A DNA stretch of 64,000 bases from contig CAZVCJ010000004.1 of assembly GCA_964625745.1 (NCBI GenBank), positions 1,289 through 65,288 of the forward strand, read 5' to 3'. Within the stretch, counting starts at the first letter, position 1. Every line of letters begins with the position of its first letter. The translations under genes were made by a program, and so were the position numbers. Source of the DNA: an uncultured Anaerolineae bacterium (GTDB lineage Bacteria; Chloroflexota; Anaerolineae; VGOG01). Shown here piece after piece: positions 9,153-54,994 of this stretch. The notes under the pieces are model-generated. The model did not search any database. It had not been told where the DNA came from and saw only the letters and a list, made by a program, of their open reading frames with translations.

Positions 9153-10961
9153 CTAATCGGAGCTATAGTTCTTGAATAGCAAAGGTAGATAGCTCGTCCA
9201 GCACTGCGTATATACAGCGGTTACGGGAATTATTAGTGGGCTGTGCTCGTAATTGGTCATTGTACTGATAACGGTGATCGTCGTGATATAAGGGCCGTAA
9301 TTTGGCAGGTTGTCTTTATCTATGGAAACCATTGCCGAAGATGGCGTGTAGCCCTCAGGGCCGCTAATGGAGAGCCAGTCATCTATCGCCGTAGCGCTCC
9401 ACGTAGCACAGTTTGTATTCGGATTGGTGATTGTCCGCAACGGGAGAACGCCGTGGTCGCAGACGCGACCCAGGTCAACGACATTGGCGGGTTCCACTTC
9501 AAGGTAGTGGGTCGTTGTCATCACAGCGGCGGCCGCATCAATGCGTCCCCAGCCGAAGTATTCATCCCAACCAGGATCGCCCAGGTCAACAGCCGTGGAC
9601 GTGATGATGCCCGTTACCTGGACGTTGGTCAAATGGGGGTTAACCGACCAGAGCAGTGCTGCCAATCCCGATACCTGGGCAGCGGCCGCATAAGTACCGA
9701 CGAGGGGTGCGGCTGGTTTACAGGAAGGTAAGATACAGACACCCCAGATTCCGACTCCAGGTGCGGCAACATCCACCTTGTCATTGTAGGTGGTCGAGTA
9801 ATTGCGGGGGTATTCATCCTGACGGCCAGTGGCAGCAACGGAGACAACGTGCTCAAGAGCTGCTGGATATTGGTAGGCATCTGGGGGAACAGGATTATTT
9901 ACTCTGGGATCGCCCGACCCGGCAACGATAAGAGCGCCCTTAGAATAAGCATAATTTACTACATTCTGCGTTGAATGGGGGTAGTTGGAGCAGGTGAGTG
10001 AGAAGCTTAGGTTTATGATCTTGGCCCCATTATCAGCAGCATAGATAATTCCCCCGTTTATGTCAGCAATAGACCCGCCACCGTACTGATCGAGCACCTT
10101 AACGGGCATGATCTCAGCCCCCCAGGAGACGCCAGCGATGAGTATCGCGTTGTTGGTCTCTGCTGCCGCGACGCTTGCCACATAGGTCCCGTGCCAAAGA
10201 TCATCCTGAGGTTCGCCGTGCCAGTTGACAAAATCCCAGCCGTGCACATCGTCTACAAAGCCATTCCCATTCCTATCGTCGTCGATCCCATTGGTCGCCT
10301 TGTCATTCCCGTTCATATCCGTGCCCGTCTCCCCAGGATTTGTCCATATCTTATCTTTCAACTCGGGGTGCTCGAGATCAACACCCGTACCAATGACAGC
10401 GATAACGACTTTCTCGCTGCCAGTGGTGATGTCCCAGGCGGCAGGGGCTCCAATTTTGGACAGGTTCCAAGGAAAATACGGATCATCGGGGATGACATCC
10501 AGAGCGCGAAGACTGTAGCCAGGCTCGATTGCGATAGGGTCTGCAATCTGAACGACGTAATTGGGCTCGGCGTACTCCACCAGAGGGTTCCGCTTTAGCT
10601 TCTCTATCTTCTCTAGCTCCCGGCCCTCGGGCACCGATAGCAGCATGATGCCAAGTTGGCCCATCTCGTTCAGGATCTCCGCCTTTTCAGCGAGAAGCAA
10701 AGACTGGACACTGGCCTTTGGAATGCCCTCCTTGAATTTGACGATGATCTCACCCGCCTTGAACTCCACCGCGCCACGCCCCCCCTCTTTCCCCCCCAAA
10801 GCTTGCCCTGAGCAAGGCTGAAGGGTTGGGGGGGATGAGGGGGGGGCTGGAGCGGTTGTCGGCGGCATTGGGTCTTCGGCGGAAGAAAGGCAGGGGAGAA
10901 GGAGAAAAAGGGCAGTCAAGAGAAGGGTTAAGATCCTTCTGGTCATTGGTATATTCTTCAT
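9153..10961 (-). CDS. secreted S8 (subtilisin) family homologue with I9 propeptide; probably non-catalytic
   Basis: Has a signal peptide, a propeptide (IIVKFKEG...) and DDDRNGNGFVDDVHGWDF. The expected catalytic motifs read AVIGTGVD (Asp->Gly), HGTYVAS (His kept), VAGSGD (Asn lost) and VGTYAAAAQVSG (Ser->Tyr). Confidence 0.85.
   Translation of the reverse strand: MKNIPMTRRILTLLLTALFLLLPCLSSAEDPMPPTTAPAPPSSPPTLQPCSGQALGGKEGGRGAVEFKAGEIIVKFKEGIPKASVQSLLLAEKAEILNEMGQLGIMLLSVPEGRELEKIEKLKRNPLVEYAEPNYVVQIADPIAIEPGYSLRALDVIPDDPYFPWNLSKIGAPAAWDITTGSEKVVIAVIGTGVDLEHPELKDKIWTNPGETGTDMNGNDKATNGIDDDRNGNGFVDDVHGWDFVNWHGEPQDDLWHGTYVASVAAAETNNAILIAGVSWGAEIMPVKVLDQYGGGSIADINGGIIYAADNGAKIINLSFSLTCSNYPHSTQNVVNYAYSKGALIVAGSGDPRVNNPVPPDAYQYPAALEHVVSVAATGRQDEYPRNYSTTYNDKVDVAAPGVGIWGVCILPSCKPAAPLVGTYAAAAQVSGLAALLWSVNPHLTNVQVTGIITSTAVDLGDPGWDEYFGWGRIDAAAAVMTTTHYLEVEPANVVDLGRVCDHGVLPLRTITNPNTNCATWSATAIDDWLSISGPEGYTPSSAMVSIDKDNLPNYGPYITTITVISTMTNYEHSPLIIPVTAVYTQCWTSYLPLLFKNYSSD
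10777..10846. repeat. full-length nested C7/G7 palindromic element, in-frame in the subtilase ORF
   Basis: Sequence: cgC7-tcttt-C7-aaagcttgccctgagcaaggctgaagggtt-G7-atga-G8. Peptide: SSPPTLQPCSGQALGGKEGGRGA. Confidence 0.85.
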
Positions 10962-11133
10962 TGGTTCTTCACCTCCGTGTAAGCAGTCGGCTAAAAGTTT
11001 CTCTTTTCCCCACCCTCGGTAGACAACAGTTTATCACAATGGAGATGTTTTGTCAAGAGGCGGTTGTTCCAGAGTGCTGCCAGTTCGGTCTGGGAAGTCA
11101 TGGAACCTTTCTTATCGCTCGGAGAGCCTGAGC

Positions 11134-12516
11134 TTACGGCGAAGGAGAATAATGCTTCATGACCAGCGGCACATATAGATAGTAAATCGAGGGGGTTTCG
11201 GTTGGCGTCGGCGTCCAGGTTGAGGTTGGGCTGGGGGTTGGTGTGCCAGTCGGCGTCGGCGTGCTAGTTTCCGTTGGTGTTACTGTTACAGTGGGTGTGG
11301 GTGTAGCAGTCGGTGTCGGTGTGTGAGTTGGCGTTGTTGTTGCAGTGGGCGTGGGTGTAGGGGTGGGAGGGGTGTACTTGCTTACCCCACCGCCATAGGT
11401 GCCGAACCAAACGTTACACTCGTTGTCTACGTCTATGGAGGTAATGATGTCACTTTCCAGCCCTGAGTTTGAAGTATTATAGCACGTCCAGTGATCTCCA
11501 TCGAATTTGCACACCCCGTACCACCAGGTGCTGATCCAAATGTTCCCCTCGCAGTCTATGGCGATAGCATTGACCCGACTGCCCGCAAGACCACTCTCTC
11601 CAGCAATGTAGGTTGTCCAGTTCACGCCATCGAATTGGCTCGCCGCGGCATTGAAGCAGTTTAGGCAATCACACCACTCATCGTATCCATCGGTACACCC
11701 TCCAAACCACTTCTCGTTGGCGCTGTCTACGGCGATGGATTGGACGTAGTTACTCGCCAGCCCTGAGTTTGAGGTGTTGTAGATTGTCCAGGTGACGCCG
11801 TCGAACTTGATCACCCCGTTATAGGTGCCGATCCACACACTGCCGGAGTTGTCTACGGCTATGGCGTTGATAGAGTCAGACTTTAACGCTCCGTTTGCCG
11901 TGTTATAGGTCGTCCAGTTCACTCCATCGAACTTGCTCACTCCGTACCCGTATCCATCGCTCAGCCTGGTGCCGAACCAAATGTTTCCCGCCTGGTCTAC
12001 GGCAATGGCGGAGACCTTGTTGAACACCAGCCCAGAGTTTGAGGTGGTATAGGTTGTCCAGGCATCGTCGCTCTTGTTGTGGGGAGTGCCGCCGTCGTCG
12101 AGCTTGCTCACCCCGCCCGTAGTGCCAAACCACTTGTTACCCTCCTGGTCTATGGCGATGGCGTTGACGCGGTTGGACACCAGATCAGAGTTTGACGTAT
12201 TGTAGGTCGTCCAGTTCTCCCCGTCGAAGACGCTGACCCCCCTGGTAGTACCGAACCACATGTTATCTCCGTCCACAGCCATGGACAAGACGTAATCATA
12301 CGCCAATCCATCGGACTGCCTGTAGGTCGTCCAGATGCCCTCGTCAGTGTGGTGAAGGTTAGCGGCTTGGGATGAAGAGGTCAGCCTGCTACGAAGAGCA
12401 GGAGGGATCCCGCGCTCAAAGGTTGTCAGAAGGGCCACCAGAAGAACAGAGGCCATCGTCAGATACAGCAATCTGGTGAGTATGGAAGTAACCCGCCTGG
12501 TTGTCAGCCTGATCAT
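11134..12516 (-). CDS. secreted two-component-regulator-propeller (Reg_prop) repeat protein with C-terminal Pro/Thr linker
   Basis: 460 aa with an N-terminal signal anchor. About 7 repeats of (W)FGT..GVSKFDG..WTTYNTSNS.L.S..V.AIA.D. PT-rich linker, then ...IYYLYVPLVMKHYSPSP. Confidence 0.8.
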   Translation of the reverse strand: MIRLTTRRVTSILTRLLYLTMASVLLVALLTTFERGIPPALRSRLTSSSQAANLHHTDEGIWTTYRQSDGLAYDYVLSMAVDGDNMWFGTTRGVSVFDGENWTTYNTSNSDLVSNRVNAIAIDQEGNKWFGTTGGVSKLDDGGTPHNKSDDAWTTYTTSNSGLVFNKVSAIAVDQAGNIWFGTRLSDGYGYGVSKFDGVNWTTYNTANGALKSDSINAIAVDNSGSVWIGTYNGVIKFDGVTWTIYNTSNSGLASNYVQSIAVDSANEKWFGGCTDGYDEWCDCLNCFNAAASQFDGVNWTTYIAGESGLAGSRVNAIAIDCEGNIWISTWWYGVCKFDGDHWTCYNTSNSGLESDIITSIDVDNECNVWFGTYGGGVSKYTPPTPTPTPTATTTPTHTPTPTATPTPTVTVTPTETSTPTPTGTPTPSPTSTWTPTPTETPSIYYLYVPLVMKHYSPSP

Positions 12517-12788
12517 AGAAATCCTCCTCGCAGCTTAATGAGCTACTCTAACGTTTACTCTGGTTACCTCTGTGCTAAAAACGCCAGCCTCAGGGCGTGC
12601 AAGGGCGCGGCCTTGGCTGGCGTCTCATCGGTTGCGGTGTTTGCTTCGTGGGCCTGAGCAGCCATCAAGGTCACCCTCGCACCCATCGGCCAAGCTTCGT
12701 TGAACCATCTCTATTGTATCACATCGGGGGCTGTTTTGCAAACTGTGGTTGACTTTCGGCCATAAGGTGGTAAAATAAGGGCAGCCAT

Positions 12789-20502: not shown

Positions 20503-21111
20503 ATGATCGCCATTATTGACTACGGAGTGGGGAACCTGCGTAGCGTCCAGAGGGCCTTTGAGTACGTGGGAGCTGAGGTGACAGTCACCGCCCACCGGGA
20601 GACCATCGAATCGGCGTCGGCAGTGGTGCTGCCTGGGGTGGGAGCCTTCGGCAAAGCGATGTCCAATCTGGAGCGGGCAGGGCTGACTGATGTCATCTGC
20701 CAGGTCATCGCCCAAGGGCGCCCCTTCCTGGGCATCTGCCTGGGTTTGCAGCTCCTGTTCGAGGAGAGCGATGAGATGGGCCAGCACCGGGGCCTGAGCG
20801 TCTTTGGCGGCAGCGTCAAGCGTTTCGAGGTCGGCCTCAAGGTGCCCCAGATCGGCTGGAACCAGATTCACATCCAGCGGGCCAGCCCTCTGTTGGAAGG
20901 TGTAGCCGACGGTAGCTACGCCTATTTCGTCCATTCCTACCACGTCGCTCCCGCTGATCCCGAAATCGTCCTGGCTACCACCGACTATGAGATTGACTAC
21001 GCCTCCATCATCGGCCAGGGCAGCGTCTTCGGCATCCAGTTCCATCCTGAGAAGAGCCAGGCGGTGGGGCTGAGGATTCTGCGCAATTTCACGGCGTTAG
21101 TTGGGGATTAA
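20503..21111 (+). CDS. hisH: imidazole glycerol phosphate synthase, glutamine amidotransferase subunit
   Basis: 202 aa. GVGAFG, GICLGLQLL (Cys nucleophile), HSY, QFHPEKS. Confidence 0.95.
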   Translation: MIAIIDYGVGNLRSVQRAFEYVGAEVTVTAHRETIESASAVVLPGVGAFGKAMSNLERAGLTDVICQVIAQGRPFLGICLGLQLLFEESDEMGQHRGLSVFGGSVKRFEVGLKVPQIGWNQIHIQRASPLLEGVADGSYAYFVHSYHVAPADPEIVLATTDYEIDYASIIGQGSVFGIQFHPEKSQAVGLRILRNFTALVGD

Positions 21112-21113
21112 CT

Positions 21114-21977
21114 ATGATCGTCTTTCCTGCCATTGATCTGCGTCAGGGAAAGTGTGTCCGCCTGCGTCAAGGGCGCCCCGAGGCGGAAACCGTCTTCTCT
21201 GATGATCCCGTGGCCATGGCTGAGCATTGGGTCTCCCAGGGCGCCGGGTGGCTCCACGTGGTGAACCTCGATGGTGCCTTCGGCCAGGCTTCATCGCCCC
21301 CCCTCGGTCCCCCCCAAAGTTGGGGGGGAAGTTCCAGGAATCTACGGGTGGTCGAGGAGATAATAAGCTCCAACTTCCAACCCTTCGGCTACGCTCAGGC
21401 CAGGCCTCCAACCTCCAACCTCCAAATCCAGTTCGGCGGCGGCCTGCGCACTATGGCCGACATCGAGCAGGCGTTGGAGTTGGGTCTGGACCGAGTCATT
21501 CTGGGAACGGTAGCAGTGGAAGAGCCGAGCCTGGTGGCCGAGGCTGTCCAGCGCTTTGGAGCCGAGCGAATCGTGGTAGGCATTGATGCTCGAAAGGGAA
21601 AAGTAGCCACCCACGGTTGGCGGCAGGTCTCATCCGTCGCTGCTACTGAGCTGGCTCTTCGAGTGAGGGAACTGGGTGTGGAGCGCGTCGTCTACACCGA
21701 CATCGCCCGCGACGGAATGCTCAGCGGAGTCAACGTCGAAGCCACCAGGGAGTTGGCTCAGCACACAGGGTTGAAGATCATCGCCTCAGGAGGCGTTTCC
21801 TCATTGAATGACCTGCGTCGCCTTAAGGAAGCCGAGGCGAGCGGGGTGGAGGGCGTCATCATTGGCCAGGCGCTGTACAGTGGGGCGCTGGAATTGCGGG
21901 AGGCGATAGAGATAGCGAGCGAATCGGCGAATCAGCGAGCGAGTCAGCGAATTGAGGGAGTGAGGTCAGGATGTTAG
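21114..21977 (+). CDS. hisA: ProFAR isomerase (HisA) carrying two in-frame repeat insertions
   Basis: [34 protein letters not shown]. About 25-30 extra residues lie between DGA and GGG compared with what I recall of typical HisA. Confidence 0.9.
21295..21328. repeat. short C7/G7 palindromic element in-frame in hisA (opposite orientation to the hisZ copy)
   Basis: Sequence: cgC7-tcggt-C7-aaagtt-G7. Peptide: [13 protein letters not shown]. Confidence 0.85.
21368..21430. repeat. 'ccaacccttcggctacgctcaggccaggcctccaa' module with TCCAACC heptamer flanks, in-frame in hisA
   Basis: Peptide: [22 protein letters not shown]. Same family as 2346-2470. Confidence 0.85.
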
Positions 21978-23502: not shown

Positions 23503-25389
23503 ATGAACAATGAAGCATCGAGAAGGCTTGCTGTAGGCATCTGCTTGCTGCTGCTAACCCTGACTTCTCCCGGCAGGGGAAACGATGCAACTGCGGGTAG
23601 TGCCCATGAGGATCTGATGAGTACAGAGACAACCGCCCCGACAACAGTGGTGACTACATCTGGATCAACCGTGCAATCTCAGACGAGATCTTCCTGGTCG
23701 TGTCTCCCTCGCTACAGTGAGCCGGAAACGATCCTAACCCTGTACCGACCAACCGATCTACACCACATGGTTTCTGCCGACTTCACTGGCGATGGCTGGC
23801 CGGATGTCGTTCTAGCGAGGGCGCTTTGGCAAAGTGACGAAATCTTCGAACTGGATATCCTGCTAAACGATGGGGACGGGAACCTGGTGTTGGGAACATC
23901 CGAGATCTTCTCGGGAACGGTCCCCTCTGTGATGGATGCACGCGAATTGGTGCTGGCCGACTTCAACGGGGATGGCCGTGCTGACATATTCTTTGCCGAT
24001 GAGGGAAACGATAGCCCTCAGGGGACTGGGTATCAGAACACGCTGGTATTGTCAGCGCCTGGTGGCAAGTTGGTGGATGCTACTGACAATCTACCTCAAC
24101 AGAGTGCTTTTACGCACTCTGCCGCCGCCGCTGACATTGACGGGGATGAGGACGTTGACCTTTACGTTGGAAACCTGTGGGGATATACCCCTCAGATTCT
24201 GCTGAACGCGGGAGGCAATGCCGTGTTTACCGTGGCGACAGGGCGTCTCCCATTTCCAGTGGAAGACACTGATTACGGTGCATACACGACCAGTGAGTTT
24301 GTCGATGTTAATAACGATACCTTCCCGGACCTGATACTTGGTGACGCGGGTGATGATCTAGAAGGAGGGCCCGATTCTCTGGTGCTGTTGAACGACGGTA
24401 CCGGCCATTTCTCGATTCTGGCTAACGCAATCCCGTCGAAACCGTTTGCAGAAACGGACATAGCCCTGGACATTGACGCGGACGACATCAACGGCGATGG
24501 ATATCAGGATCTATTCATCGTTTTCACAAAGGACGATCCCTTTTACATGGGCAGGTACATCCAGATACTGATAAACAACCAAGACGGCACCTTCCGCGAC
24601 GAAACCCCTGCGCGATTGCCGCAGTCCGATAACGATGATCCCTGGATCAAGTGGGTCTATCTGCTTGACCTTGATATGGATGGGCATCTTGACATCGTGG
24701 CAACCCCGTTGGGGCCGCCAGGGCCCCTGTTTTACCTTAACAACGGGGATGGCACCTTCCGTCCACTGCCCAACGTGTTCAACATCGGAACTGACAATCT
24801 ATTCACGTTTCTTGACATTGATCAGGATGGGTTTCTTGATGTCCTCTGGTCCTGGGGCGGATGCCAACATGGGGCCTGTCCCGAGGATCATTTCCTTGTC
24901 CGTGCTCTTGGTTGTCCCGTGTTCTTGCCCCTGGTGCTCAAGAACTTCTATCCTTCGCAGCCAACGCCCACTCCCACCCAGCCGGTTGAGTCGGTGATAG
25001 TCCACCTTGCACAGGGTGACGCGTGGGTCCCAGCCGGTACCCCGATTATCCTGGCAACTCGCTGGATAGTAGACCAGCCAGGGCTCGTAGATGACTATCT
25101 GGCCTCGTTGGATCTCACGGTCACTTTGGATGGCGAGCCGCTGCCCGGCGTGATGGATTATTGGGGCGGGGTAGAGGAGTATGGAGACTTCGACGGAGAT
25201 GGAGACACCGACTACGTGTCGAACTGGGAGTATTCCGTGGGGGTGCTCAGTTCGGGAACCCACCAGGTTGAATCCGAATTCTATCTTCAGCGGCCCATCA
25301 CGGATGGATTTGATCTGGACGAGGATGGTGTCCCAGACGTGTACAGTGGCTCATGGGAGTACTTCCTGCAGATCACAGTTGGAGAATGA
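23503..25389 (+). CDS. secreted FG-GAP/VCBS repeat protein
   Basis: 628 aa with a signal peptide. Repeated ADFNGDGRADIFF / DIDGDEDVDLYVG / DINGDGYQDLF / DLDMDGHLDIV / DIDQDGFLDV. Internal PVFLPLVLKNFYPSQPTPTPT, followed by an extra ~140-aa domain. Confidence 0.8.
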   Translation: MNNEASRRLAVGICLLLLTLTSPGRGNDATAGSAHEDLMSTETTAPTTVVTTSGSTVQSQTRSSWSCLPRYSEPETILTLYRPTDLHHMVSADFTGDGWPDVVLARALWQSDEIFELDILLNDGDGNLVLGTSEIFSGTVPSVMDARELVLADFNGDGRADIFFADEGNDSPQGTGYQNTLVLSAPGGKLVDATDNLPQQSAFTHSAAAADIDGDEDVDLYVGNLWGYTPQILLNAGGNAVFTVATGRLPFPVEDTDYGAYTTSEFVDVNNDTFPDLILGDAGDDLEGGPDSLVLLNDGTGHFSILANAIPSKPFAETDIALDIDADDINGDGYQDLFIVFTKDDPFYMGRYIQILINNQDGTFRDETPARLPQSDNDDPWIKWVYLLDLDMDGHLDIVATPLGPPGPLFYLNNGDGTFRPLPNVFNIGTDNLFTFLDIDQDGFLDVLWSWGGCQHGACPEDHFLVRALGCPVFLPLVLKNFYPSQPTPTPTQPVESVIVHLAQGDAWVPAGTPIILATRWIVDQPGLVDDYLASLDLTVTLDGEPLPGVMDYWGGVEEYGDFDGDGDTDYVSNWEYSVGVLSSGTHQVESEFYLQRPITDGFDLDEDGVPDVYSGSWEYFLQITVGE

Positions 25390-43400: not shown

Positions 43401-45191
43401 TTCGGTCAGGTTATCCACCACCAACTGGAAGGGTGCATCGGCGGTGTAGGTGGTGTCGCCCTTGTAATACGGCGAGAGGTCCAGATTGTCGGGCACGTCG
43501 TCGTTGTCGTTGTCGCGGTCGAAGAGGTCGGGTGTGCCGTCGTTGTCCATGTCCGGTGGGAGAGCGCTTTCGGAGGCCCGGCCGGTGTTCCACTCGCGCC
43601 CGTCGTCAAGGCCATCCCTGTTGGTATCAAGCTCCGTGGGATCGCTGTACCACATCTTATCTTTGTAGGAGAAGCCGTTGATCTCCTCAGGATCCTCGAT
43701 GCCGTCGCTGTCGGAGTCGTCAGAGTCATCGGCGGTGCCCAGGATACATTCTTCGAAGTCGGTCAGGCCATCTTCGTCGGTGTCGCCGGTGTCATCGGGG
43801 TCACATTCGGGGGCGGAGGATTCGTTGTTGTCGTTGTTGTTGGAGGCAAGAGCAGGGAGTTGGATATTGGATATTGGGTATTGTGTATTGTGTGAGGTGT
43901 CTAGCGGGTTGAGGTTGGGATTCCAGTTGGGCTGGGTTAAGAGGGCTTCGAGGTCGCGCTGCATGTCGCTTTCCTGCTGAAGGGCTTCCTGTTCCTGGGC
44001 GCGTGTCTGCTGCTGCTCGAAGAATGCCGCCACCCGCAGGCTCTGCAACAGCGGCGAGAAAATCAGCGAGACGATCACGGTCACGGCCAACGCGATGTAC
44101 AGGCGACTGGAGCGTTTGTGGATCACAAGCATGATGGACAGAATCAGCGAGAAGACCAGTGGGATTGCAAAGCGGAGATCAGGGATTAGAGATTGGAGGT
44201 TGGAGATTGGAGACTGGAGATTGGGGGCTGCGGATCCTGACACCCCAGATCCGAAATCCGCATTCCGAAATCCGAAATCAATTGTCGCTTCGGCGCGGCT
44301 TTCCTGATCGTCCGGACCCGGTGGGAACTGGAGGCGCAGGATCTGGCGCAGAGGCAGGCCATCCGCACTGATCCACAGTTCGCCCTCGCCCGTCATCTTC
44401 ACGTAAGTCTTGGGCAGGTCCAGACTAACGCCGGGTGGCAGCTCCCCCTTCTCGGTCAGGTACTTCTCCAATTGGTCGCGCACATAAGCGGCGTAACTCC
44501 GCCCATCAACGTCAAACGTGAAACGTGAAATGTGAGGCGTGAGGCGTGAGTCCACGTTTTCACGCTTCACGTTCTTGGCCGCTGCCAGGAATGCCATGAA
44601 GTCGCCCTGGGGCGCGAAGAGGCCCGTGAAGTTGGGGATTTCCTGCCAGGCCTGCGTGTCCTGGCGGGCGTAGGCCCGGTCGCCATCCACCTTGATTTCC
44701 ACGCCGCTGCCGGGGTCCACCACGCTGCCGCCCTGCGACCACAAGGTCAGGTGCAGTTGCCGCTCGTGGAGGTCGGTTTCACCTTCCAGGTGCAGGGCTT
44801 CTTCTTTGCTCGTGCGGCCCACGTTGAGGATGGTGGGCTTGGGGATCACGGTCTGCTTGATGTCGGCCGTGAAGTGGTAGGCACCGGCCTGCTGGGCGCG
44901 CCGCCAGGCGGCCTGCACTGCGTGCTCTGGCGATGCCGCCGCAGTCACGGATGGCGCCTGGGCATACACCTGCTCGCTGGGAGCGCCCAGATCGGTGCTC
45001 TCCACAACCGATGCGAGCCGTGCCAGTGCGTCGTGAGCTCGCTCTCGGATTCGGTTTGCTCCTCCTTGCAGGGACGCGGCGATTGTGGGCAGTTCGCTGA
45101 GAACAGCCATCTGAGCGGCTAGTACCGCAACGCCAAGCACTACGGCGCACAATGCCAGAATCAGGCGATTGGGTGAGGATGGGTGCTTCAA
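31485..45191 (-). CDS. giant (4568 aa) membrane-embedded surface protein with TSP3-like Ca-binding repeats, LamG x2, Ig-like domains, a P-domain and a C-terminal TM anchor
   Basis: TTG start with GGAGG 10 nt upstream. Landmarks: N-terminal signal anchor; TM pair ~44045-44165; Asp-rich DxDxDG repeats ~43480-43830, ~40245-40612 and ~32030-32205; 5-7 TM helices ~41270-42010; two LamG/ConA-like domains ~37560-38850; PT linker ~35955-36075; proprotein-convertase P-domain-like ~32655-33040; C-terminus ...PVNRLELLASWLGLAALVVLAALAVALIWRRKT. Confidence 0.9.
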   Translation of the reverse strand: MKHPSSPNRLILALCAVVLGVAVLAAQMAVLSELPTIAASLQGGANRIRERAHDALARLASVVESTDLGAPSEQVYAQAPSVTAAASPEHAVQAAWRRAQQAGAYHFTADIKQTVIPKPTILNVGRTSKEEALHLEGETDLHERQLHLTLWSQGGSVVDPGSGVEIKVDGDRAYARQDTQAWQEIPNFTGLFAPQGDFMAFLAAAKNVKRENVDSRLTPHISRFTFDVDGRSYAAYVRDQLEKYLTEKGELPPGVSLDLPKTYVKMTGEGELWISADGLPLRQILRLQFPPGPDDQESRAEATIDFGFRNADFGSGVSGSAAPNLQSPISNLQSLIPDLRFAIPLVFSLILSIMLVIHKRSSRLYIALAVTVIVSLIFSPLLQSLRVAAFFEQQQTRAQEQEALQQESDMQRDLEALLTQPNWNPNLNPLDTSHNTQYPISNIQLPALASNNNDNNESSAPECDPDDTGDTDEDGLTDFEECILGTADDSDDSDSDGIEDPEEINGFSYKDKMWYSDPTELDTNRDGLDDGREWNTGRASESALPPDMDNDGTPDLFDRDNDNDDVPDNLDLSPYYKGDTTYTADAPFQLVVDNLTEDLPTFVEFQLRPTDPDHLWYAFNVLDWPQGDDQGQMQDTDGKTFYDLDHSTSHSPNDNGDVKLIPMLEIKTTGSPNNLPPQNDLEAYGISIMDLNEDGTDKAVYVPLVLVTEPKGSARVAFSGRMLYQPADQWGNAHQVRLVWVVQALVDVCERYEDGRCTSYEEKNEAEIVHTYDDEWKLTGLAVREDHGTDFAIVYEDPDVDDDLDDDSALMFLTRGLELTFLAGRDCEEWDEKDPDDPTDDECIRGNDELDITITEIYSRFNHTTNSGVSVTSTWRISDTAGNIMSVVTDTYPTMDEAVATVGMTEAVKILDDHFTPHVPVAPTLLFAREERFRSLNLDEDRVGASTITWSDDNHQLKLDLKPDDVEVQTVAGMNWAPYRYRDDAWEPYPIEDYWEELENRYEKDFADEYVDEEHPEDLRTGAVFVGQIYYLTLYTGVHVAVQSGGTLLTQKYQTSDRPIAAVMATFGAKAVVAVVQMWIMRNFLYSTKALEFLAQIVRSSQAGARGAIQPFGHTLGNLIAKWKNVGRWLGAKGAVTAGAMLVLAGLAVGVYFLTREYLGTNTEAQMAVHAIVGIALGYMLILSPLRMVVGMIRALTYSGVSVLSATTQVLKSSSQFIGMSRIAGLIGMIAGLGIVFGIFIYALCKNEGLRRGLGLSMLLAQTFAAAIVTIMLAVFSLTVIGAIIVGIMTLVDVLLWLTGAGFTITGVVTEAVAKTFFSFELAIDEEDDGLVKMGTLDSRLVNPERGMVPGAQFEFKTTITSTVIHELPREYWTSLYIWKYDKDQIRSTSFEYELDTKKKSMSTHLGDTNRVNPWHVSDAYEAWGRTFYKGWFDDDLSAISTVSEAGINRTVPLILSTGYALPGVECWAVLWVISWAIPVVVCVDRGLEGEADPADLGSNIVMDVFPNTLDEFVQVSGWASDLKFKDADGDGLMAQDYGGNDPDDTRWDTDGDGLSDAWELQMAAIRFDEGGYVFDPRDADTDGDGLSDQEEAFLGSDPNRPDTDGDGITDAAETEGWDFYYRYPEKTRIFSDPLNADADSDGMDDLFERTLHTECGKLDDESERRDCYNNNLFNPYIWNTNPIGVYTEVGDPDKVVKPTQTFPFTTTVQNNVETGSPLWVRGTTELEADPLTGFPLEMTFDIAKDKSQSLYTDLTVPAGTGNQTVTLTTDVKSQLHTPSVWAWDPWQTDSHATSYPKALSLAAVSVNGWNTAYAAVSREDYRVRGYRVSPAGITDSGVDVFAEAGWSATSEPAIACNDSGRCLVVYSYKNNYGTYWVTWRSATSNWGSLSLHQVESAGGECEAWGATVASDGDNFLVAWMRECSGDEQIKVRHVLANGDKSGGVLTLDSASNVSFPKLAWVGDRYQAVWERGSDIYTAYISGQSATEPEAVSASAASEWSPRIAYDPLSGRTLVIYTSRSGSNRSLRGRILAGSNTPDEFTVGNLSDQAGWEAAVSNDPVNGGWAVAWSLNGQYTVYSQGVGMNGELRGERGRTEAPGKSYLLDVTCAEPRIAALFHFDEEGDTACTFADSSGFDHDASCWQDYIPSGKEGKRGNAVYFEGHHETGGATFEEGAWIRAGGVGLSVSSYGITFWFKAECDTCGIYSVGDAAAFNYDDHDRDIYLLNGNLCAKLGEGNPNTTESEVICSSGKNFADGQWHHVANTFGGGVGGQHLYVDGKLRATGERSSSNLHTQSVIMGVAVGVQPCNTYGCDDKRFFKGYFDELTIYPRALSEGEVVDDYLGALVVYPFDEVSGAETFNNAARSGYGAAECSAGQCPQAGKEGIAYNAVKFDGTDDVITGADVPIAGSSFTIAFWAKREWTNRDEYIVSQGSAGSDRDLYIGFWSNNRFICAFDTTNYLVTSNQYSDTDWHHWACSYDFGTGQRTIYRDGVQVAQDTTARYYWGSGPLRIGKARWGNYFRGLVDELAVWPGVLSASEIKTLYQKVKALDDSVTECLVSRTTHDGEHLHINRTALHETTTPLGRSEQQVEDEVIVDGTLPTADITSLADDQHIGETGTLPIGGEARDNTYVTKVEVRVDGGAWQEADGAETWTWDWDTSAVGEGWHTLSVRANDPADNVGNPSSIGVFIDRTPPQLTVTEVRGKAWDDSQGRWWVWVKGTVEDSTNGSLYVLLQGQHRRRISPEEETHVRAGGGWTSLRFSAGDGSAHQWELNYALPAFDNEGNALPNPTGVYTLYMRARDDAGNYLPEAVYGVFEVDNTPPVADLQYMGPYTDAIACNDVTLTGVITDPGPVDSGVGILYVKFEPVAELWKSWYYYHSGRATLAESGWGITTTTWTYEMPDLEGFYELRLESHDVQPWPYHGGKAAVWNGMVDTAAPRAEPGLKWLSLPFGPTEVTCYVEDLNLDEDTFIGCPCPEDTWQRTYFHEISSWYSEVTTDTNRLVRITATCQVNGALPFLAHYVCDAYDHCTTATYPIDVPIPPTPTPWPPSEWGPTPTPTQEPTATPTPTPTPTPPPPLSLDSAVITPSNGTAFSTTAAFGVEGQAYAENYLQTLTVTVNSAPFYDTGWPDSPDPGAVTETTWTTSYTPLGEGYYTLNSEVSDWISQVQTTTHPITVTVDLQPPAPPTFDTTVITTARRAAQGAAVLSGNAADNFGVARVDVNPDDRGWGAASLTGEAISPVWRYTWPIDDADPDGVNYDVTARATDFASHTNATTATLLFDMQAPEAVTITLGYFDALGAYHPVEPRQTITDGNQLVIEWTLSTDGSGVAGYRVGWTDSPTNTEGTLYVPAGTAYSYTQVISEAHEVYAHVVSVDIYGNWQEQTEGPVYVDAPLTPDLIRTQLPTGLLYHGWMDSGCTQMGRSRSVADRAPTGASLSENQEFYATWDANALRLAWVGANWDVEGDLFIYLDTRSGGATQLLNPYGGPAPGIYLPGNLPELVTSEWPEFEQVRQSQTVAALQSMAMQADYLVWVVDSETAALWEWNEVTEGWDLSLWLTAEQYQWNNGITDLYLPFDLLDISNPATNSLGLLAAASEEDALRLWSAMPDRNLLNSVLAVNPLAAVQAATQRNFVLPNFYRWPSLGPLLCPYTEALQEPPTSQGFVDSDLRVELTVEPLGTTYALFGDDLFWQWETLFQESGPKSQQFTFLDNTHPPVGQDDVISYTLRVSNRGTSEALDVQAFVLAYSALSLPDGSRLDQGYMEYRQLNVGSVAPGDTVTVTFSGVVEVESNWRYERCVNVDGLPPEVCRQLLQWAILDGLVFDARNPFSGTTGIPTQPPLEWVWADHAVDIDPPQHVGIEVPKLVVGPGANTVRGYASDPSGVPLVEVEVRDPLGGVTVLNCPDAMPHDGQWTCEWNVVGSDGDEFELRARATDGYDHVSDWTIPWHVVVVDATPPTVALDDEARAAVDGQFIGPGGELLTGPISDTHSSVVVQVCREVDEETVCESAATLLSTQAPTDTAHFYDDVPTAPIVITGIITDVITATTYCGGGEITRTFTVADAFIVGDVDLGFNATHPAREEIVAELVSPSGTRALVIAPSGATYGFANYDVWLDDAASGPLHAPIQDDPTEPYFDRPAQPFSSLSTFIGEASQGMWQLNICDLNPLLNEGTYNRSRLSLTPQSAALSTAGRWNYPLPLIEGADGLSVTLSIYGLDGVGNRTPEPISLTYQLDVVPPALTTTVVITMMYELSPTLVLAGQVSDGGGVDEVYVRVDPPDAASYRDLTARVGEEWVYTLRPDTGGTYALWLEAHDLVGNIRLEGPLYVEVALSDSDGDSIPDDEDNCPLVSNPDQADADDDEAGDACDNCPNHANPGQEDLDGDGVGNACDDTANDLPTSTGSGSFTLQASAGYFSFIAGVGNPSPADAPSLDFLHGFFNFTIEGLAPGGTVEVTISLPDDMPPDTQYWKYGPTVANPANHWYQIPMGDNDGDNVITITITDGGDGDDDLVANGVITEPGGPGQPPPQPPVPVGGIIVPVNRLELLASWLGLAALVVLAALAVALIWRRKT
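43860..43894. repeat. period-7 array (TTGGATA type, 5 units) in-frame in the giant ORF
   Basis: Units: ttggata ttggata ttgggta ttgtgta ttgtgtg. Peptide: HNTQYPISNIQ. Confidence 0.9.
44172..44283. repeat. period-7 array of 16 units (TTGGAGA type switching to ATCCGAA type) in-frame in the giant ORF
   Basis: Units counted directly. Peptide: [33 protein letters not shown]. Confidence 0.9.
44507..44576. repeat. period-7 array (AAACGTG type, inverting to CACGTTT type) in-frame in the giant ORF
   Basis: Units: aaacgtg aaacgtg aaatgtg aggcgtg aggcgtg agtccac gttttca cgcttca cgttctt. Confidence 0.9.
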
Positions 45192-50956: not shown

Positions 50957-53900
50957 CTACTCTTCTGCCACAGGGAAGCGGGTGAGAACTGTAGCCCACT
51001 CCTGGAGGAGCATCTTGTCGCCCAAAGAGAGCTCTTCCACCGGCTTGGTGGGTGGGACTTTGTCGTGGGGGAGGGGGATGATGCCGATTTGCACTCCCTC
51101 CCGGTTGTATTTCTGGTCAACGTAGGCCAGGCCAACCTGGAACCCTTCGGTGTCCAAGGCGCAACTGGTGACGCGGCCTATGTACTTGCCTCGCTTGTCA
51201 ACCACCGGGTCTCCCAGCTTGGCCATCCTCACCCCCTTCTCGTCCATGCGGAAACGAAGCAGCTCCATGTTCCTGGTGGCTTCTTTTTCCAGCAGGGTTT
51301 TCCTGCCGATGAAGTAGGGCTTGTGGAACTTCACGTAGGAGCCAAAGCCGGCCTCGATGGGAGAGATGTTGTACGGCCCGGCCAGATCGTGTCCGTGCAG
51401 CGGCAGGCCGGCCTCGGTTCTGGTCGAGTCTCTGGCGGCCAGGCCCGCTGGCTTCAGGTCATAATCCCGGCCTTTCTCCAGCAGCAGATTCCACATCCTG
51501 GGAGCGTTGTCGGGGTGCAGGTAGAGCTCGTAGGCGATGTCCTCTCCGGTGTAGCCGGTGCGGGACACGATGAGCTCCATGCCCGCCAACTCCGTCTCGA
51601 TGAACTCGGTTCGGCTGATCCGGGCCAGCTTCTCTCGCAGCTTTTCATCTTCAGTCAAGCTCTGGAGGATGGCCAGGGAATTGGGGCCCTGGATGGCCAA
51701 GTCAACCCGCTGGTCGTCCCCTGACGCCGGATCCTTCAAGTCGCGGATGATGGCGGGACCCTCGATCTCGATGTCCGGATGCTCTCTGTCTATCAGGCAT
51801 TTGCCGGAGTTGACGGCGTTCAGCCAGGCCAGGTCTTTCTCGGCGTTGGAGGCGTTGATCACCAGCATGTAGCGGTCCGCCGCCCGGCGGTAGATGAACA
51901 CGTCATCAATCACGTTGCCATCGGGGTCGAGGAGGTAGGAGTATTGAGATTGCCCATCCCCGATCCAGCGCACGTAGTTGGACGTGACCGCGTCGAGGAA
52001 AGCGGTGGCGTGCTCGCCGGCCACCTCCACCACTCCCATGTGAGCCACGTCGAACAGCCCCGCCGTCTCCCTCACGGCTCTATGCTCCTCGCCGACGCTG
52101 GTGTACCAGACCGGCATCTCCCATCCAGCGAAGGGTATCACTTTCTTCGTTAGCTTCAGATGCTCTTCGTAGAGGACGGTTCGCTTGAGCTCGCCTTCTT
52201 CTTGCCACTGCCACTCCTCCTTCTCCACCTCGGACCTGACGCTTTCCAGGCTCTTCTGGCCGACGAAGTAGGGCTTGGAGACGTGGAACAGGGAATCGTG
52301 GCCCGCTTGATAGAGGGAGAGGCCGATCGGAGTTTCGAGTTTCGAGTTTCGAGTTTCGAGTTTCGAGATTTTAGTTTCGAGTTTCGAGATTTGAGATTTG
52401 ATATTAGGTGTTGCATCTTCGTCTAGATCCTTCACCACCACCGGCCCCTCGACCTTGCGGAAGATGTCGTCTTCGTCGAACAGGATGTACCCGTCGGCGA
52501 GGCCCCGGAACCAGGCCTTCACCCTGTCGGTGTTCTCAGGATTGGTCATCACGACGTAGTGGTCACGGCCCCATTGGTCCGGCTCCAGGCGCAGGATGGC
52601 GATGCTATCAATGAGCTGCCCCTGGGCATCCAGCAGGAAGGAACGCTGGCTCTCGCCTGGTTGCAGCCTGGACACGTCGTTGGTGGAGACCTGCTGCAGG
52701 AAGGGCGTGGCCCTCTGGCCAATCACCTCCAGCAGTCCCATGTCTGACGTTTGACGTTTCACGTTTGACGTTTCACGTTTCACGCTCGACGTTTCACGCA
52801 AGAAGTAGTAATGTGGGTAGCCAATCCCCTGTGCTGGCGTCTCCACCTCCGCTCCCCTCGCCAGCTCTTCCACCTCAAGCTTCACTTCCTCCAGGATGTC
52901 CAGATCAATCTTCCCCCTCCACAGCGGCCCTGTCAGTCCGATGTAGCTGAAAGGCTTGACGTTGACGATGAGGCGGTGGATGAACTCGGCGATCTTGTCC
53001 ATTTCCGCCCTGCCCATCCCTCGCTGGGTGAGCCAGGGCGTACCCAGGCGGATGCCGCTGGCCTCGCTGGCGTCGGCGTCGTCGGGGATAGTGTTCTTGT
53101 TGACCACGATGCCCGCCAGGTCCAGGATGCGGGCTGCGATCTCGCCCTTGAGGGGGAAGCCCTCCGGGGACTTGAGGGGATTGAGGTCAATCACCAGGAG
53201 GTGGGTGTTCGTCCCGCCGTAGGCCAGCTTCAGGCCGCGCCTCTGCAGCCCGTCGGCCAGGGCCACGCAGTTCTCCACGATCCTGTGTTGCAGGCGTTTG
53301 AACTCTTCCGTCTGAGCTATCCTGGCGGCGACGGCCATGGCTGCGAACTTGTGCACGTGAGGTCCGCCCTGCCGACCGGGGAACACGGCGTTGTCTATCA
53401 GTTCGGCCAGGTCCTCGTCGGTGGTCATGATCACCGCTCCGCGCGGGCCGAAGAAGGTTTTGTGGGTGGTGAAGGTAGTGACGTCGGCGATGCCTACGGG
53501 ATTCGGGTAGGCGCCCGCTATGGCTAATCCTGCAGTGTGGGCGATGTCGGCCATGAGGAGCGCCCCGCAGGCGTCGGCGATCTCCCGGAACTTCTCCCAG
53601 TCGGGGGCCCAGGAATAGGAGGTGAATCCGCCCACGATGATCCTGGGCCTGTGCTCCAGGGCCAGCTCCATGATCTGGTCGTAGTCCAGCTTTTCGGTGG
53701 CCCTGCTGGCGGCGTAGGAGACCACGTTGTAGCGGCGGCCGGAGATGTTGAAAGGGCTGCCGTGGGTGAGGTGTCCGCCCTGGGGGAGAGCCAATCCCAT
53801 GATGGTGTCGCCTGGATCGAGGAGAGCGCTATAGACTGACAGGTTAGCGGGCGAGCCTGAGAGGGGCTGGACGTTCACGAAAATCTGGTCGGCGCTCACC

Positions 53901-54277
53901 CTCTCGTTGGCGAAACATGCAGCCACCCGCCTTTGGGCCAGGCACTCGATGAGGTCGGCGTATTCGACGCCCTTGTAGAACCGCCTGTCGGCGTAGCGCC
54001 TGTAGTTGGCCAGCTCGTGGTCGAACTGGAGGAGCAGTTCGATCTCGTCTCGGGTCATCTGCAGGCGGGGATAGCCCTCGGCGTAGATGTTGTTGAACAC
54101 GCTCCCCAGCGCCTCGCGAACCGGCTTGGGGCAGTAGCTCTCCGAGGGAATCATAATCAGCTTCCTGGCCTGCCTCTCCTCCTCGAAGGCGATCAGGTCG
54201 GCCACATCGGGATCCACCTCGGCCAGGTCCTTGCCGAAGACGAGGTCCCAATACTCTTGGCTTTTTTCTCTCTTCAT
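50957..54277 (-). CDS. fusion ORF: serine hydroxymethyltransferase + degenerate GcvT-like module + complete aminomethyltransferase (GcvT)
   Basis: aa 1-~490 SHMT (PSESYCPKPV, GGHLTHG, TTHKTFFGPRG). aa ~512-690 GcvT-like remnant (FLQQVSTNDVS...; ...FHVSKPYFVGQKSL). aa ~695-1106 GcvT (FAGWEMPVWY, GLFDVAHMG, VSRTGYTGE, KFHKPYFIGRKTL). Confidence 0.88.
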   Translation of the reverse strand: MKREKSQEYWDLVFGKDLAEVDPDVADLIAFEEERQARKLIMIPSESYCPKPVREALGSVFNNIYAEGYPRLQMTRDEIELLLQFDHELANYRRYADRRFYKGVEYADLIECLAQRRVAACFANERVSADQIFVNVQPLSGSPANLSVYSALLDPGDTIMGLALPQGGHLTHGSPFNISGRRYNVVSYAASRATEKLDYDQIMELALEHRPRIIVGGFTSYSWAPDWEKFREIADACGALLMADIAHTAGLAIAGAYPNPVGIADVTTFTTHKTFFGPRGAVIMTTDEDLAELIDNAVFPGRQGGPHVHKFAAMAVAARIAQTEEFKRLQHRIVENCVALADGLQRRGLKLAYGGTNTHLLVIDLNPLKSPEGFPLKGEIAARILDLAGIVVNKNTIPDDADASEASGIRLGTPWLTQRGMGRAEMDKIAEFIHRLIVNVKPFSYIGLTGPLWRGKIDLDILEEVKLEVEELARGAEVETPAQGIGYPHYYFLRETSSVKRETSNVKRQTSDMGLLEVIGQRATPFLQQVSTNDVSRLQPGESQRSFLLDAQGQLIDSIAILRLEPDQWGRDHYVVMTNPENTDRVKAWFRGLADGYILFDEDDIFRKVEGPVVVKDLDEDATPNIKSQISKLETKISKLETRNSKLETPIGLSLYQAGHDSLFHVSKPYFVGQKSLESVRSEVEKEEWQWQEEGELKRTVLYEEHLKLTKKVIPFAGWEMPVWYTSVGEEHRAVRETAGLFDVAHMGVVEVAGEHATAFLDAVTSNYVRWIGDGQSQYSYLLDPDGNVIDDVFIYRRAADRYMLVINASNAEKDLAWLNAVNSGKCLIDREHPDIEIEGPAIIRDLKDPASGDDQRVDLAIQGPNSLAILQSLTEDEKLREKLARISRTEFIETELAGMELIVSRTGYTGEDIAYELYLHPDNAPRMWNLLLEKGRDYDLKPAGLAARDSTRTEAGLPLHGHDLAGPYNISPIEAGFGSYVKFHKPYFIGRKTLLEKEATRNMELLRFRMDEKGVRMAKLGDPVVDKRGKYIGRVTSCALDTEGFQVGLAYVDQKYNREGVQIGIIPLPHDKVPPTKPVEELSLGDKMLLQEWATVLTRFPVAEE
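52330..52399. repeat. period-7 array (GAGTTTC type, 10 units) in-frame inside the GcvT-like remnant
   Basis: gagtttc x4, then gagattt tagtttc gagtttc gagattt gagattt gatatta. Peptide: NIKSQISKLETKISKLETRNSKLETP. Confidence 0.9.
52747..52802. repeat. period-7 array (ACGTTTC/G type, 8 units) in-frame at the SHMT/GcvT-like junction
   Basis: Units: acgtttg acgtttc acgtttg acgtttc acgtttc acgctcg acgtttc acgcaag. Peptide: RETSSVKRETSNVKRQTSD. Confidence 0.9.
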
Positions 54278-54436
54278 TTGTCAGCACTCCTTTGTGTGTG
54301 GCTAACTTGACATTGTTAGATTCCTGATAAGACTATCTGGTCTTGGACGTGGCCGCCAAACAACACTACATCGAATTGAAAGAAACGAATTCTTTGCCCT
54401 CCATTCGCTTTGGCTCATGTGGGTTTAGATTTGATT

Positions 54437-54473
54437 GGGGCGCGGGGTAAATCCCCAGCCTGCCCCGCGCCCC
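54437..54473 (-). terminator. GC-rich hairpin downstream of the RCC1 gene (weak terminator candidate)
   Basis: GGGGCGCGGGG-15 nt-CCCCGCGCCCC. No clear U-tract. Confidence 0.3.
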
Positions 54474-54493
54474 GCACTTGTAGTTTGGGACCT

Positions 54494-54994
54494 CTACCGC
54501 AGGATCAGCGGCAGGTACAGGTAGTAGCCCCAAAGCACATTCACCGGCGTCGTGCGCTGGGTGGTCGTGCCATCCCCGAGTTGACCAGACGAGTTACGGC
54601 CCCAGCACTTGCCCCCGCCGCCGGTCAGGGCGCAGGTGTGATACCAACCCGCCGCAATCGCGGCCACACCGCTCGCCAGGCCGCTCACGTTCACGGGCGT
54701 CGTGCGCCGGGTGGTCGTGCCGTCGCCGAGTTGACCATAGGTGTTGTCGCCCCAGCACTTGACCCCGCCGCCGCTGGTGAGGGCGCAGGTGTGATACCCA
54801 CCCCCCGCAATCGCGGTGGCGTTGGCGGCGATGGCCAACGGCAGTCCGCCAAGTGGCGCGCCTAGAGGGTTTCGGCCAGGAGAAGTGGCAGCCAGGCCTG
54901 GGACCTGGGCGTGGACGCTGCCGGCCAGCAGGGTCAGCAACACCCATACACCGATCAAACTGTTCAGACGCTTGAAATGACAAATGGGTTTCAT
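54494..54994 (-). CDS. small secreted RCC1-repeat protein
   Basis: 166 aa with a signal peptide. Two repeats of [31 protein letters not shown]. Ends [11 protein letters not shown]. Confidence 0.7.

Follow-up and report, generated by a model that had tools for sequence, protein, structure and literature searches.

YLP-box motifs on four unrelated exported proteins of an uncultured Anaerolineae bacterium: a candidate sorting or processing signal of Chloroflexota

Among the closest described counterparts of the motif analysed here, the YLP-box, are the tripartite signals LPXTG (sortase), PEP-CTERM (exosortase), PGF-CTERM (archaeosortase), GlyGly-CTERM (rhombosortase) and MYXO-CTERM (myxosortase). 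Like the YLP-box, they are lineage-restricted, have many carriers per genome and mark surface proteins that share a signal peptide but not their domains, often with a Thr/Pro-rich linker ahead, and they present a Pro-containing signature, hydrophobic residues and basic residues in that order. The hydrophobic part of the YLP-box, however, comprises 3-4 residues as compared to ~20 in the tripartite signals, so that the box is unable to span a membrane; it has a single basic residue where they have a cluster, and it may be internal. We know of no sortase-like partner for the YLP-box, nor of any prokaryotic C-terminal sorting signal that also occurs non-terminally in the same way.

The YLP-box is already curated as a putative ultrashort C-terminal sorting motif. 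Two NCBIfam models, NF050076.1 (sort_motif_YLP) and NF053834.1 (ultrashort_CTERM), are both named "YLP-box putative sorting motif", a label that the NCBI curators reached independently; the motif, which an earlier note on this DNA matched to none of the tags known to its author, is therefore not a new one. The curation consists of a name, without an attached mechanism or partner, and a full-text literature search returned no paper on the YLP-box motif, its mechanism or its partner. Because the motif is already curated, the addition made by the present locus is modest: variant boxes, and evidence for flexible position.

The window, the whole stretch of 64,000 nucleotides that was analysed, contains four box carriers with the following features (means of assignment in parentheses):

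9153..10961, minus strand: secreted S8 subtilase, 602 aa (translation, Pfam)
9171..9191, minus strand: subtilase YLP-box YLPLLFK, Lys type, then NYSSD and stop (translation, pattern search)
11134..12516, minus strand: Reg_prop beta-propeller protein, 460 aa (translation, Pfam, hydrophobicity test)
11155..11175, minus strand: Reg_prop YLP-box YVPLVMK, Lys type, then HYSPSP and stop (translation, pattern search)
11191..11370, minus strand: Pro/Thr-rich linker of 60 residues between the Reg_prop propeller and its box (translation)
23503..25389, plus strand: FG-GAP propeller protein with signal peptide, 628 aa (translation, Pfam)
24922..24942, plus strand: internal FG-GAP YLP-box FLPLVLK, Lys type, then NFYPSQ (translation, pattern search)
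24961..25386, plus strand: FG-GAP post-box segment, a short PT linker (24961-24984) and an extra C-terminal domain
54494..54994, minus strand: secreted RCC1-repeat mini-protein, 166 aa (translation, Pfam)
54497..54517, minus strand: RCC1 YLP-box YLPLILR, Arg type, stop codon directly after (translation, pattern search)

Six-frame translation of the whole window yielded exactly four matches to [YF][LV]PL[LVI][FLM][KR], all in signal-peptide proteins, and two much looser patterns matched at the same four sites only. Pfam assigns the carriers to four unrelated folds (S8 with fervidolysin prodomain, Reg_prop, RCC1 and FG-GAP), and all four boxes share a core of [YF]-[LV]-P, three hydrophobic residues and a basic residue. 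Translations, six-frame search and Pfam thus bear out the earlier report of one motif in four unrelated signal-peptide proteins, and the tails quoted there agree exactly with the translations of the four ORFs. In three carriers the box is separated from the stop by 0, 5 and 6 residues; the fourth box, that of the FG-GAP protein, is internal. With a signal-like N-terminus judged by a crude hydrophobicity test, the box is present in four of the five non-polytopic window proteins that have one, versus none of the 33 other genes (Fisher p=7e-5).

The subtilase consists of a signal peptide, a fervidolysin-like prodomain, the catalytic domain, a C-terminal beta-sandwich and the YLP-box tail, its translation ending with QCWTSYLPLLFKNYSSD before the stop. 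Directly upstream lies the gene for the Reg_prop protein, which has an N-terminal hydrophobic signal or anchor and ends with SIYYLYVPLVMKHYSPSP after the PT linker. The FG-GAP protein contains GCPVFLPLVLKNFYPSQPTPTPTQ and continues for another 134 residues, an extra C-terminal domain with no match in Pfam or NCBIfam; the identical protein is present on at least 24 contigs, so this architecture is not an assembly artefact. In public assemblies, the identical subtilase is found on 8 contigs and the identical RCC1 protein is indexed in 31 blocks. A 4568-aa protein of the window has a separate, transmembrane-type tail.

That the box is not a functional unit, being a coincidental resemblance, a repeat at the DNA level or the final beta-strand of each fold, is a reading already refuted, and we give it next to no probability. 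Matches expected by chance number 0.025 per window (mononucleotide shuffles) and 0.004 in the gene set (composition), against the four observed. Synonymous codons differ among the four boxes, which identifies the motif as one at the protein level and rules out a DNA repeat or mobile-element origin. A last strand of the fold is ruled out in turn by FG-GAP homologues that lack the box and keep the domain, by the 60 linker residues preceding the Reg_prop box, and by the disordered tail of the subtilase in an AlphaFold2 model (97 sequences), where residues 592-600 lack secondary structure and stay under a pLDDT of 50. As the pattern was drawn up post hoc, the real test lies in independent loci, and these confirm the YLP-box.

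The C-terminal enrichment expected from the earlier note was found in a family-blind scan of metagenome DNA for YLPLxxR in ORFs, with YLPLxxS as a built-in control. Of 78 in-ORF matches, 45 are no more than 12 residues away from the stop (for 44 of these the distance is at most 4), versus 2 of 21 for the control (p=6e-5); the box is strongly biased to 0-5 residues from the C-terminus. About one in five credible boxes is non-terminal, located after a signal peptide, between modules or ahead of a transmembrane anchor. Since these boxes are genuine, the C-terminus is the favoured site but not a required one. A degron or quality-control tag at the C-terminus, read by a tail-specific or PDZ-domain protease, would fit a box that is C-terminal, hydrophobic and exposed. 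The actual C-terminal residues, however, are polar and variable (R, RN, QYP, NYSSD), not apolar; boxes also occur internally, and the box is conserved on abundant exoproteins, structural ones as well as enzymes, all of which makes a degron very unlikely.

Carriers are also enriched among signal-peptide proteins, again as anticipated: a signal-like hydrophobic segment is present in 17 of the 21 carriers whose N-terminus is complete, versus 45 of 126 neighbouring ORFs. Their domains (DUF11, S8, RCC1, Big_1/Invasin_D3, SdrD_B, PKD, CARDB, SpaA) are typical of surface proteins, and several loci have two adjacent carriers. Among the loci sampled, the YLP-box was found only in Chloroflexota: across 14 Chloroflexota loci, 9 of the 155 ORFs are box-terminated, versus none of the 756 ORFs from 66 loci in other phyla (p=1e-7), a restriction based on 80 loci only, picked through a subtilase query. 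Named carriers belong to Anaerolineae, Anaerolineales and Caldilineaceae.

In the best 120 homologues of the subtilase (50-100% identity) the box is nearly invariant, while the tail beyond it differs between homologues in both length and sequence. The box columns have an entropy of 0.26 bit, versus 1.11 bit in the 31 columns ahead of them and 0.98 bit across the catalytic domain, and by this alignment the box is under stronger purifying selection than its flanks. Most FG-GAP homologues end at the box, as ...GCPVFLP[LFV][VI]CRN plus 0-12 residues, and many others stop at ...GCP, just ahead of the box site, without a box; the YLP-box is an appended module outside the fold. A small Gly-rich family (>1,260 members) is box-terminated in 115 of its best 120 matches; the AlphaFold2 model of this small carrier is of low confidence (pLDDT 59). 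The box consensus is a basic residue, a hydrophobic stretch and [YF]-[LV]-P-[LVM]-[VIL]-[LMF]-[RK], frequently with [NQ]-[YFH]-P after it, and Lys replaces Arg in undoubted family members, e.g. YLPLILK and YLPLVLK. Cluster look-up returned PGAP names of "hypothetical protein" only.

Homologous subtilases of other phyla offer a further comparison. Of 56 such tails, 12 carry a match to the T9SS type A sorting domain, and further ones to dockerin_GC or JDVT-CTERM, or to a MYXO-CTERM protein model; to judge from these profile matches, the slot of the YLP-box in subtilases is filled in other phyla by known sorting domains. In FCB-group phyla the slot is shared with the T9SS C-terminal domain (PorU sortase), yet the latter, which belongs to diderm bacteria, folds into a domain of ~80 residues, while the YLP-box is a peptide of 7-10 residues, and TIGR04183 has no match in the four carriers. 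As regards LPXTG, the carriers have no Thr-Gly, no transmembrane helix and no LPXTG_anchor match, with at most 6 residues after the terminal boxes. For PEP-CTERM/archaeosortase-type signals they gave no NCBIfam match and have no transmembrane segment. An analogy with the sortase pilin motif (W...YPK, Lys nucleophile) was dropped, as most boxes have Arg instead of Lys.

Outside these systems, PTS1 (-SKL) and KDEL/HDEL are very short C-terminal peptides without a transmembrane segment that are read by a soluble or membrane receptor; unlike the YLP-box, they are eukaryotic and need a free carboxylate at the exact end, and they have no sequence similarity to it. The recognition sequences of subtilisin-like maturation enzymes, such as PatA/PatG of the cyanobactins, are short linear motifs by the scissile bond, with S8 readers and a short leaving group. 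The substrates of those enzymes are cytoplasmic precursors of ribosomal peptides, in contrast to the exported carriers of the YLP-box, and the window subtilase scores 37 bits against the NCBIfam PatA/PatG models (cutoff 421), which is generic S8 similarity.

C-terminal bias, carrier signal peptides, restriction to Chloroflexota, conservation and a slot shared with known sorting domains together make the YLP-box a well-supported candidate sorting or processing signal. This comparative evidence supports the function proposed in the earlier note, with the amendment that the motif is not strictly C-terminal. We favour, with moderate confidence, the reading that the box, a linear motif without a transmembrane segment, serves in retention or sorting and is read in trans by a lineage-specific envelope component. 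The box, of 7-10 residues, sits in a disordered tail or linker of Chloroflexota proteins presumably exported through Sec; an envelope component of the lineage would read it in trans, and this reader would keep or sort the protein at the cell surface, a role akin to that of LPXTG, PEP-CTERM and T9SS C-terminal domains with no membrane-spanning segment. We infer Sec export, partner recognition and surface retention of box proteins. Against a sorting reading stand the share of credible boxes that are non-terminal, the want of a transmembrane segment to hold the substrate at the membrane for processing, and the failure to find a reader among the window ORFs examined or a recurrent candidate family among 150 neighbours of box genes.

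The main rival is that the box is a site of proteolytic processing or shedding with no sorting function. A secreted protease would cleave it, be it a subtilase cutting behind Y-L-P-[L] or an enzyme of Arg/Lys specificity cutting behind the basic residue, so as to free modules, strip N-terminal anchors or trim tails. Cleavage at boxes between modules, after a signal peptide and linker, or ahead of a transmembrane anchor would release a domain. Y-L-P-L resembles the classic subtilisin substrates suc-AAPF and suc-AAPL (aromatic P4, Pro P2, Leu/Phe P1), and many carriers are subtilases, often adjoining other carriers (window 9153-12516; loci L008 and L009), in a sample biased by its subtilase query. 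Furthermore, in 14 of the 45 terminal boxes of the metagenome scan Arg is the very last residue, so that removal of whatever follows the basic residue would leave all carriers with one common C-terminus. Against this, a cut 0-5 residues from the end is pointless alone, yet that arrangement is the dominant and most conserved one; position 4 is frequently occupied by Val (YLPVVLR) or Ile (YLPIILR), neither of which suits the P1 site of subtilisin well; and AlphaFold2 did not dock the subtilase's own tail with confidence. On balance we regard processing without sorting as unlikely.

A bolder form of the trans-read motif, which we hold to be doubtful, is that the YLP-box represents the first sorting signal of bacteria to lack a membrane-spanning segment, read outside the cytoplasmic membrane by a receptor or transpeptidase. 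With a receptor, the 7-10 residue peptide would be recognised in the manner of PTS1 or KDEL; with a transpeptidase, a soluble or wall-associated enzyme, possibly one of the subtilases that bear a box, would cut within or after the box and the cut protein would be transferred to an envelope acceptor. If true, this would amount to a novel system of surface display specific to Chloroflexota. Members of this phylum abound in sludge, sediments and soils, and their envelope is little understood; proteases, adhesin-like giants and propellers are among the proteins they export. A tag on four of the five exported window proteins points to a system for surface display or processing. Once identified, the reader of the box would be a new type among prokaryotic sorting systems and would improve the annotation of carriers, and the box could serve biotechnology as a very small display tag.

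The earlier note had found no sortase or exosortase gene in the window, and indeed no sortase, exosortase or rhomboid-like gene, nor any enzyme or receptor reading the box, was found among the window ORFs examined. A DUF456 membrane protein and an M24 peptidase beside the subtilase were rejected, both being missing from the orthologous loci L007-L009. Pfam analysis of 150 neighbours of terminal-box genes gave no recurrent candidate family; the only matches were Response_reg, Beta_helix, TPR, transposases and two to Peptidase_C14. This want of a partner gene would suit a self-sufficient physico-chemical anchor, in which the box, with no dedicated protein partner, acts as a seven-residue hydrophobic wedge with basic flanks that sticks to the membrane interface, wall or sheath. 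The consensus, a hydrophobic heptad with Tyr and central Pro between basic residues, and the presence of boxes at either protein end or inside linkers are consistent with such an anchor. However, Y-L-P, Pro especially, is near-invariant and the [NQ]-[YFH]-P tail is preferred, which argues for specific recognition rather than generic hydrophobicity; seven residues would give weak affinity, and restriction to one lineage is left unexplained. We therefore consider the anchor quite improbable.

The window boxes resemble members of the two NCBIfam models in their Y-L-P, hydrophobic and basic core and in extreme C-terminal position, and the Lys-type boxes differ from them in having tails of 5-6 residues or an internal position. 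Current models miss Lys-type and non-terminal boxes: YLPLLFK, YVPLVMK and FLPLVLK gave no NF050076 or NF053834 match at E<=10, whether native or cut at Lys. The curated cutoffs are 15 bits for NF050076 and 10 bits for NF053834. Scanned by itself, the RCC1 tail scores 15.1 bits against NF050076, with all 11 profile positions aligned, and within the whole protein 11.5 bits. In-silico replacement of Lys by Arg in the FG-GAP box gave scores of 12.0 and 11.3 bits, the second of which exceeds the NF053834 cutoff, and the tail of a small protein at L007:17767-18057 passes both models.

The earlier note had described the pattern [YF][LV]PL[LVI][FLM][KR] in four secreted proteins of unrelated fold. Its four ORF translations were borne out exactly, and Pfam confirmed four unrelated folds. 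In a six-frame translation of the window, this pattern and two far looser ones matched only at these four sites. Shuffled sequence yields 0.025 matches per window, and 0.004 matches in the gene set are expected from amino-acid composition. Synonymous codons differ among the four boxes, indicating that their similarity lies at the protein level.

Proteins of the window carrying the YLP-box
9153-10961, minus strand: subtilase; translated ORF with C-terminus ...QCWTSYLPLLFKNYSSD, then stop
11134-12516, minus strand: Reg_prop propeller; 60-residue Pro/Thr linker, then C-terminus SIYYLYVPLVMKHYSPSP and stop
23503-25389, plus strand: FG-GAP protein; ...GCPVFLPLVLKNFYPSQ-PTPTPTQ-, then 134 further residues
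54494-54994, minus strand: RCC1 protein, 166 aa; translated ORF

The interpretation offered by the earlier note is supported in part. Its reading of the box as a candidate sorting signal stands. The view that the motif was a new one does not, since two tiny NCBIfam models, NF050076.1 (sort_motif_YLP; 11 positions, cutoff 15 bits) and NF053834.1 (ultrashort_CTERM; 10 positions, cutoff 10 bits), already describe it, both as “YLP-box putative sorting motif-containing protein”. Against NF050076, the tail of the RCC1 protein aligned end to end, scoring 15.1 bits by itself and 11.5 bits when the whole protein was scanned; a related small protein from a locus orthologous to the window subtilase region (L007:17767-18057) exceeded both cutoffs. 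For the three Lys-type boxes of the window (YLPLLFK, YVPLVMK and FLPLVLK), neither model reported a match, native or truncated at the Lys; upon an in silico Lys-to-Arg change, the FG-GAP box reached 12.0 and 11.3 bits with the two models. These scores indicate that the window proteins are members of a known motif class, three of them as sub-threshold variants. No paper on the motif was found in full-text literature searches; what is new here is the addition of members and sub-threshold variants to a curated, uncharacterized class.

Nearly all of the 120 best subtilase homologues (50-100% identity; Anaerolineae or Chloroflexi wherever the source label names them) have the C-terminus ...QCW[RT][SN]YLPLLFK plus 2-12 variable residues. 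In a 97-sequence alignment, mean entropy is 0.26 bit over the seven box columns, compared with 1.11 bit in the 31 columns before the box and 0.98 bit in the catalytic domain. In the AlphaFold2 subtilase model from the same alignment, the last strand stops at residue 585, and residues 592-600 have pLDDT <50 and no secondary structure. Strong conservation in a segment that lacks structure is what marks a linear motif recognized in trans. Three other accounts of the box were excluded: chance, a DNA repeat and an element of the fold.

Among the 120 best homologues of the FG-GAP protein (P0121-P0240), most are 450-500 aa long and end in ...LGCPVFLP[LFV][VI]CRN plus 0-12 residues, while a large minority stop at ...GCP, lacking the box. 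The coexistence of both forms points to the box as an appended module, gained and lost within the family. These homologues have a conserved Cys at box position 6 (FLP[LF]VCRN) and a conserved ...GC-P ahead of the box; in the window copy, Leu replaces this Cys. The 628-aa window form, with box, PT linker and extra domain, recurs on at least 24 contigs, drawn from many samples, which shows the architecture to be real. The internal box is followed by a tail of the K-N-[YF]-x-[PS]-S type, as in the other two boxes of Lys type in this genome, which weakly suggests that the same constraint still acts on it.

Species-representative genomes scanned with the subtilase alignment yielded 80 loci, 14 from Chloroflexota and 66 from other phyla. 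A box no more than five residues from the stop ends nine ORFs in the Chloroflexota loci (155 ORFs of at least 80 aa) and none of the 756 ORFs in the remaining loci (p=1e-7). The terminal carriers include other subtilases, subtilase-adjoining Big_1/Invasin proteins of 2,000-2,800 aa and one 96-aa protein; one additional box in these loci is internal, flanked by two PT linkers. Of the subtilase matches themselves, seven of the 14 from Chloroflexota end in the box or, in one case, contain it, and a degenerate variant ends two more. Among 56 C-terminal tails of other-phyla homologues, 12 match the T9SS type A sorting domain and others match dockerin_GC or JDVT-CTERM, or a MYXO-CTERM protein model. 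A “choice of anchor” pattern of this kind is what comparative work classically cites in favor of a sorting signal, and we propose that the box would do in Chloroflexota the job of LPXTG, PEP-CTERM and T9SS domains.

A family-blind metagenome scan with the DNA pattern TAYCTGCCGCTGNTSNTSMGS, representing YLPL, two hydrophobic residues and Arg or Ser, gave 119 loci. The matches are biased toward C-termini: 45 of the 78 Arg-ended in-ORF matches with a stop in reach lie within 12 residues of it, 44 of these within four, versus two of 21 in the built-in Ser-ended control (p=6e-5). The derived consensus, x-[YH]-[RK]-[VIL]-Y-L-P-L-V-[LM]-R, is followed by nothing (14 cases), Asn (19 cases) or Gly. Among carriers whose N-terminus is complete, 17 of 21 have a signal-like segment, versus 45 of 126 neighbours; in the window, where signal-like N-termini were called by a crude hydrophobicity test on non-polytopic proteins only, the box occurs in four of five such proteins versus 0 of 33 other genes (p=7e-5). 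Carrier domains (DUF11, S8, RCC1, Big_1/Invasin_D3, SdrD_B, FG-GAP, PKD, CARDB, SpaA and Reprolysin) are the usual surface-protein repertoire.

Boxes also occur away from the C-terminus. About 10 of the 33 internal Arg-ended metagenome matches are credible boxes in exported proteins, a class that includes the window FG-GAP protein; the remainder are chance or homologous matches in cytoplasmic enzymes. Boxes follow a signal peptide and Pro-rich spacer (L137; Ser-ended in L104 and L125), lie between modules or PT linkers (L141, L146, L131, L158, L147), or precede a C-terminal transmembrane anchor by ~25 residues (L108, ending ...PLWLAILLLGGMGLYLRRTGNL). The L111 protein has two boxes, one internal and one terminal, on either side of a DUF11-type repeat, a layout suggestive of a duplicated terminal module. 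Such non-terminal positions favor the main rival explanation, a proteolytic processing or shedding site, as do the similarity between Y-L-P-L and subtilisin substrates and the many subtilases among carriers, although in a biased sample. However, in its prevailing and best-conserved arrangement the box is 0-5 residues from the C-terminus, so that a cut there would by itself accomplish nothing, and the would-be P1 position is frequently Val or Ile; we regard a processing site as unlikely.

We therefore lean, with somewhat better than even confidence, toward a linear retention or sorting motif that acts without a transmembrane segment and would be recognized in trans by an envelope component specific to Chloroflexota. 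A partner-less interfacial anchor fits less well and seems improbable, and a degron, also a poorer fit, very improbable. As the earlier note had stated, no sortase or exosortase gene is present among the window ORFs examined, nor is a rhomboid-like gene, and no enzyme family recurs among 150 neighbours of box genes.

The fifth signal-like, non-polytopic window protein (4568 aa; 31485-45191, minus strand) has a signal peptide and a transmembrane anchor at its end, with no YLP-box. In the tail (31488-31769), a choice-of-anchor U domain matches NF041766 at 57 bits, and the protein closes with a transmembrane-plus-basic segment, ...NRLELLASWLGLAALVVLAALAVALIWRRKT. A similar tail, ...PLSWLGLGGLVLGGLFLVQRR, is found at the end of another large, unrelated protein (L212:7200-9902). 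These organisms may therefore have a second sorting signal, of the transmembrane type.

A very abundant family (>1,260 homologues) consists of Gly-rich signal-peptide proteins of 92-112 aa with the layout ...YDLSWWTVDGGGG...GGDYTLGGGFWGG...YKVYLPLVLRQYP at the stop.

Small Gly-rich box proteins
L007:17767-18057, minus strand
L210:10001-10297
L212:10001-10279
L213:7732-8067 and 10001-10309

Each gene lies directly downstream of one for a large exported protein beginning ...FTYQGRLTDGGSPANGSYDF, without a box, and at L213 this pair of genes occurs twice, in tandem. AlphaFold2 confidence is low for the small protein, which may act as a subunit for anchoring or as an adaptor.

The window's gene for the Reg_prop carrier directly adjoins that for the subtilase. 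In the two more distant orthologous loci (L008:2365-10530 and L009:9197-15340), the order is a box-carrying subtilase, a protein of 2,000-2,700 aa that likewise ends in a box (YLPVLFK), and a GT2-like glycosyltransferase gene. Within 20503-29015, an otherwise contiguous his/pur biosynthesis cluster (hisH, hisA, hisF, hisI, hisE ... purH, hisD) harbors the gene for the FG-GAP carrier together with a gene of unknown function (182-212 aa). The RCC1 carrier is identical in many metagenome assemblies, although only about two RCC1 blades follow its signal peptide, not enough to make a propeller alone; full-length RCC1 carriers with the box are present at L112. Window positions 50957-54277 (minus strand), upstream of gcvH and gcvP, encode a protein of 1106 aa in which serine hydroxymethyltransferase (PF00464) is fused to the glycine-cleavage T protein (PF01571), a fusion also found in another Anaerolineales genome (L011:1402-4554).
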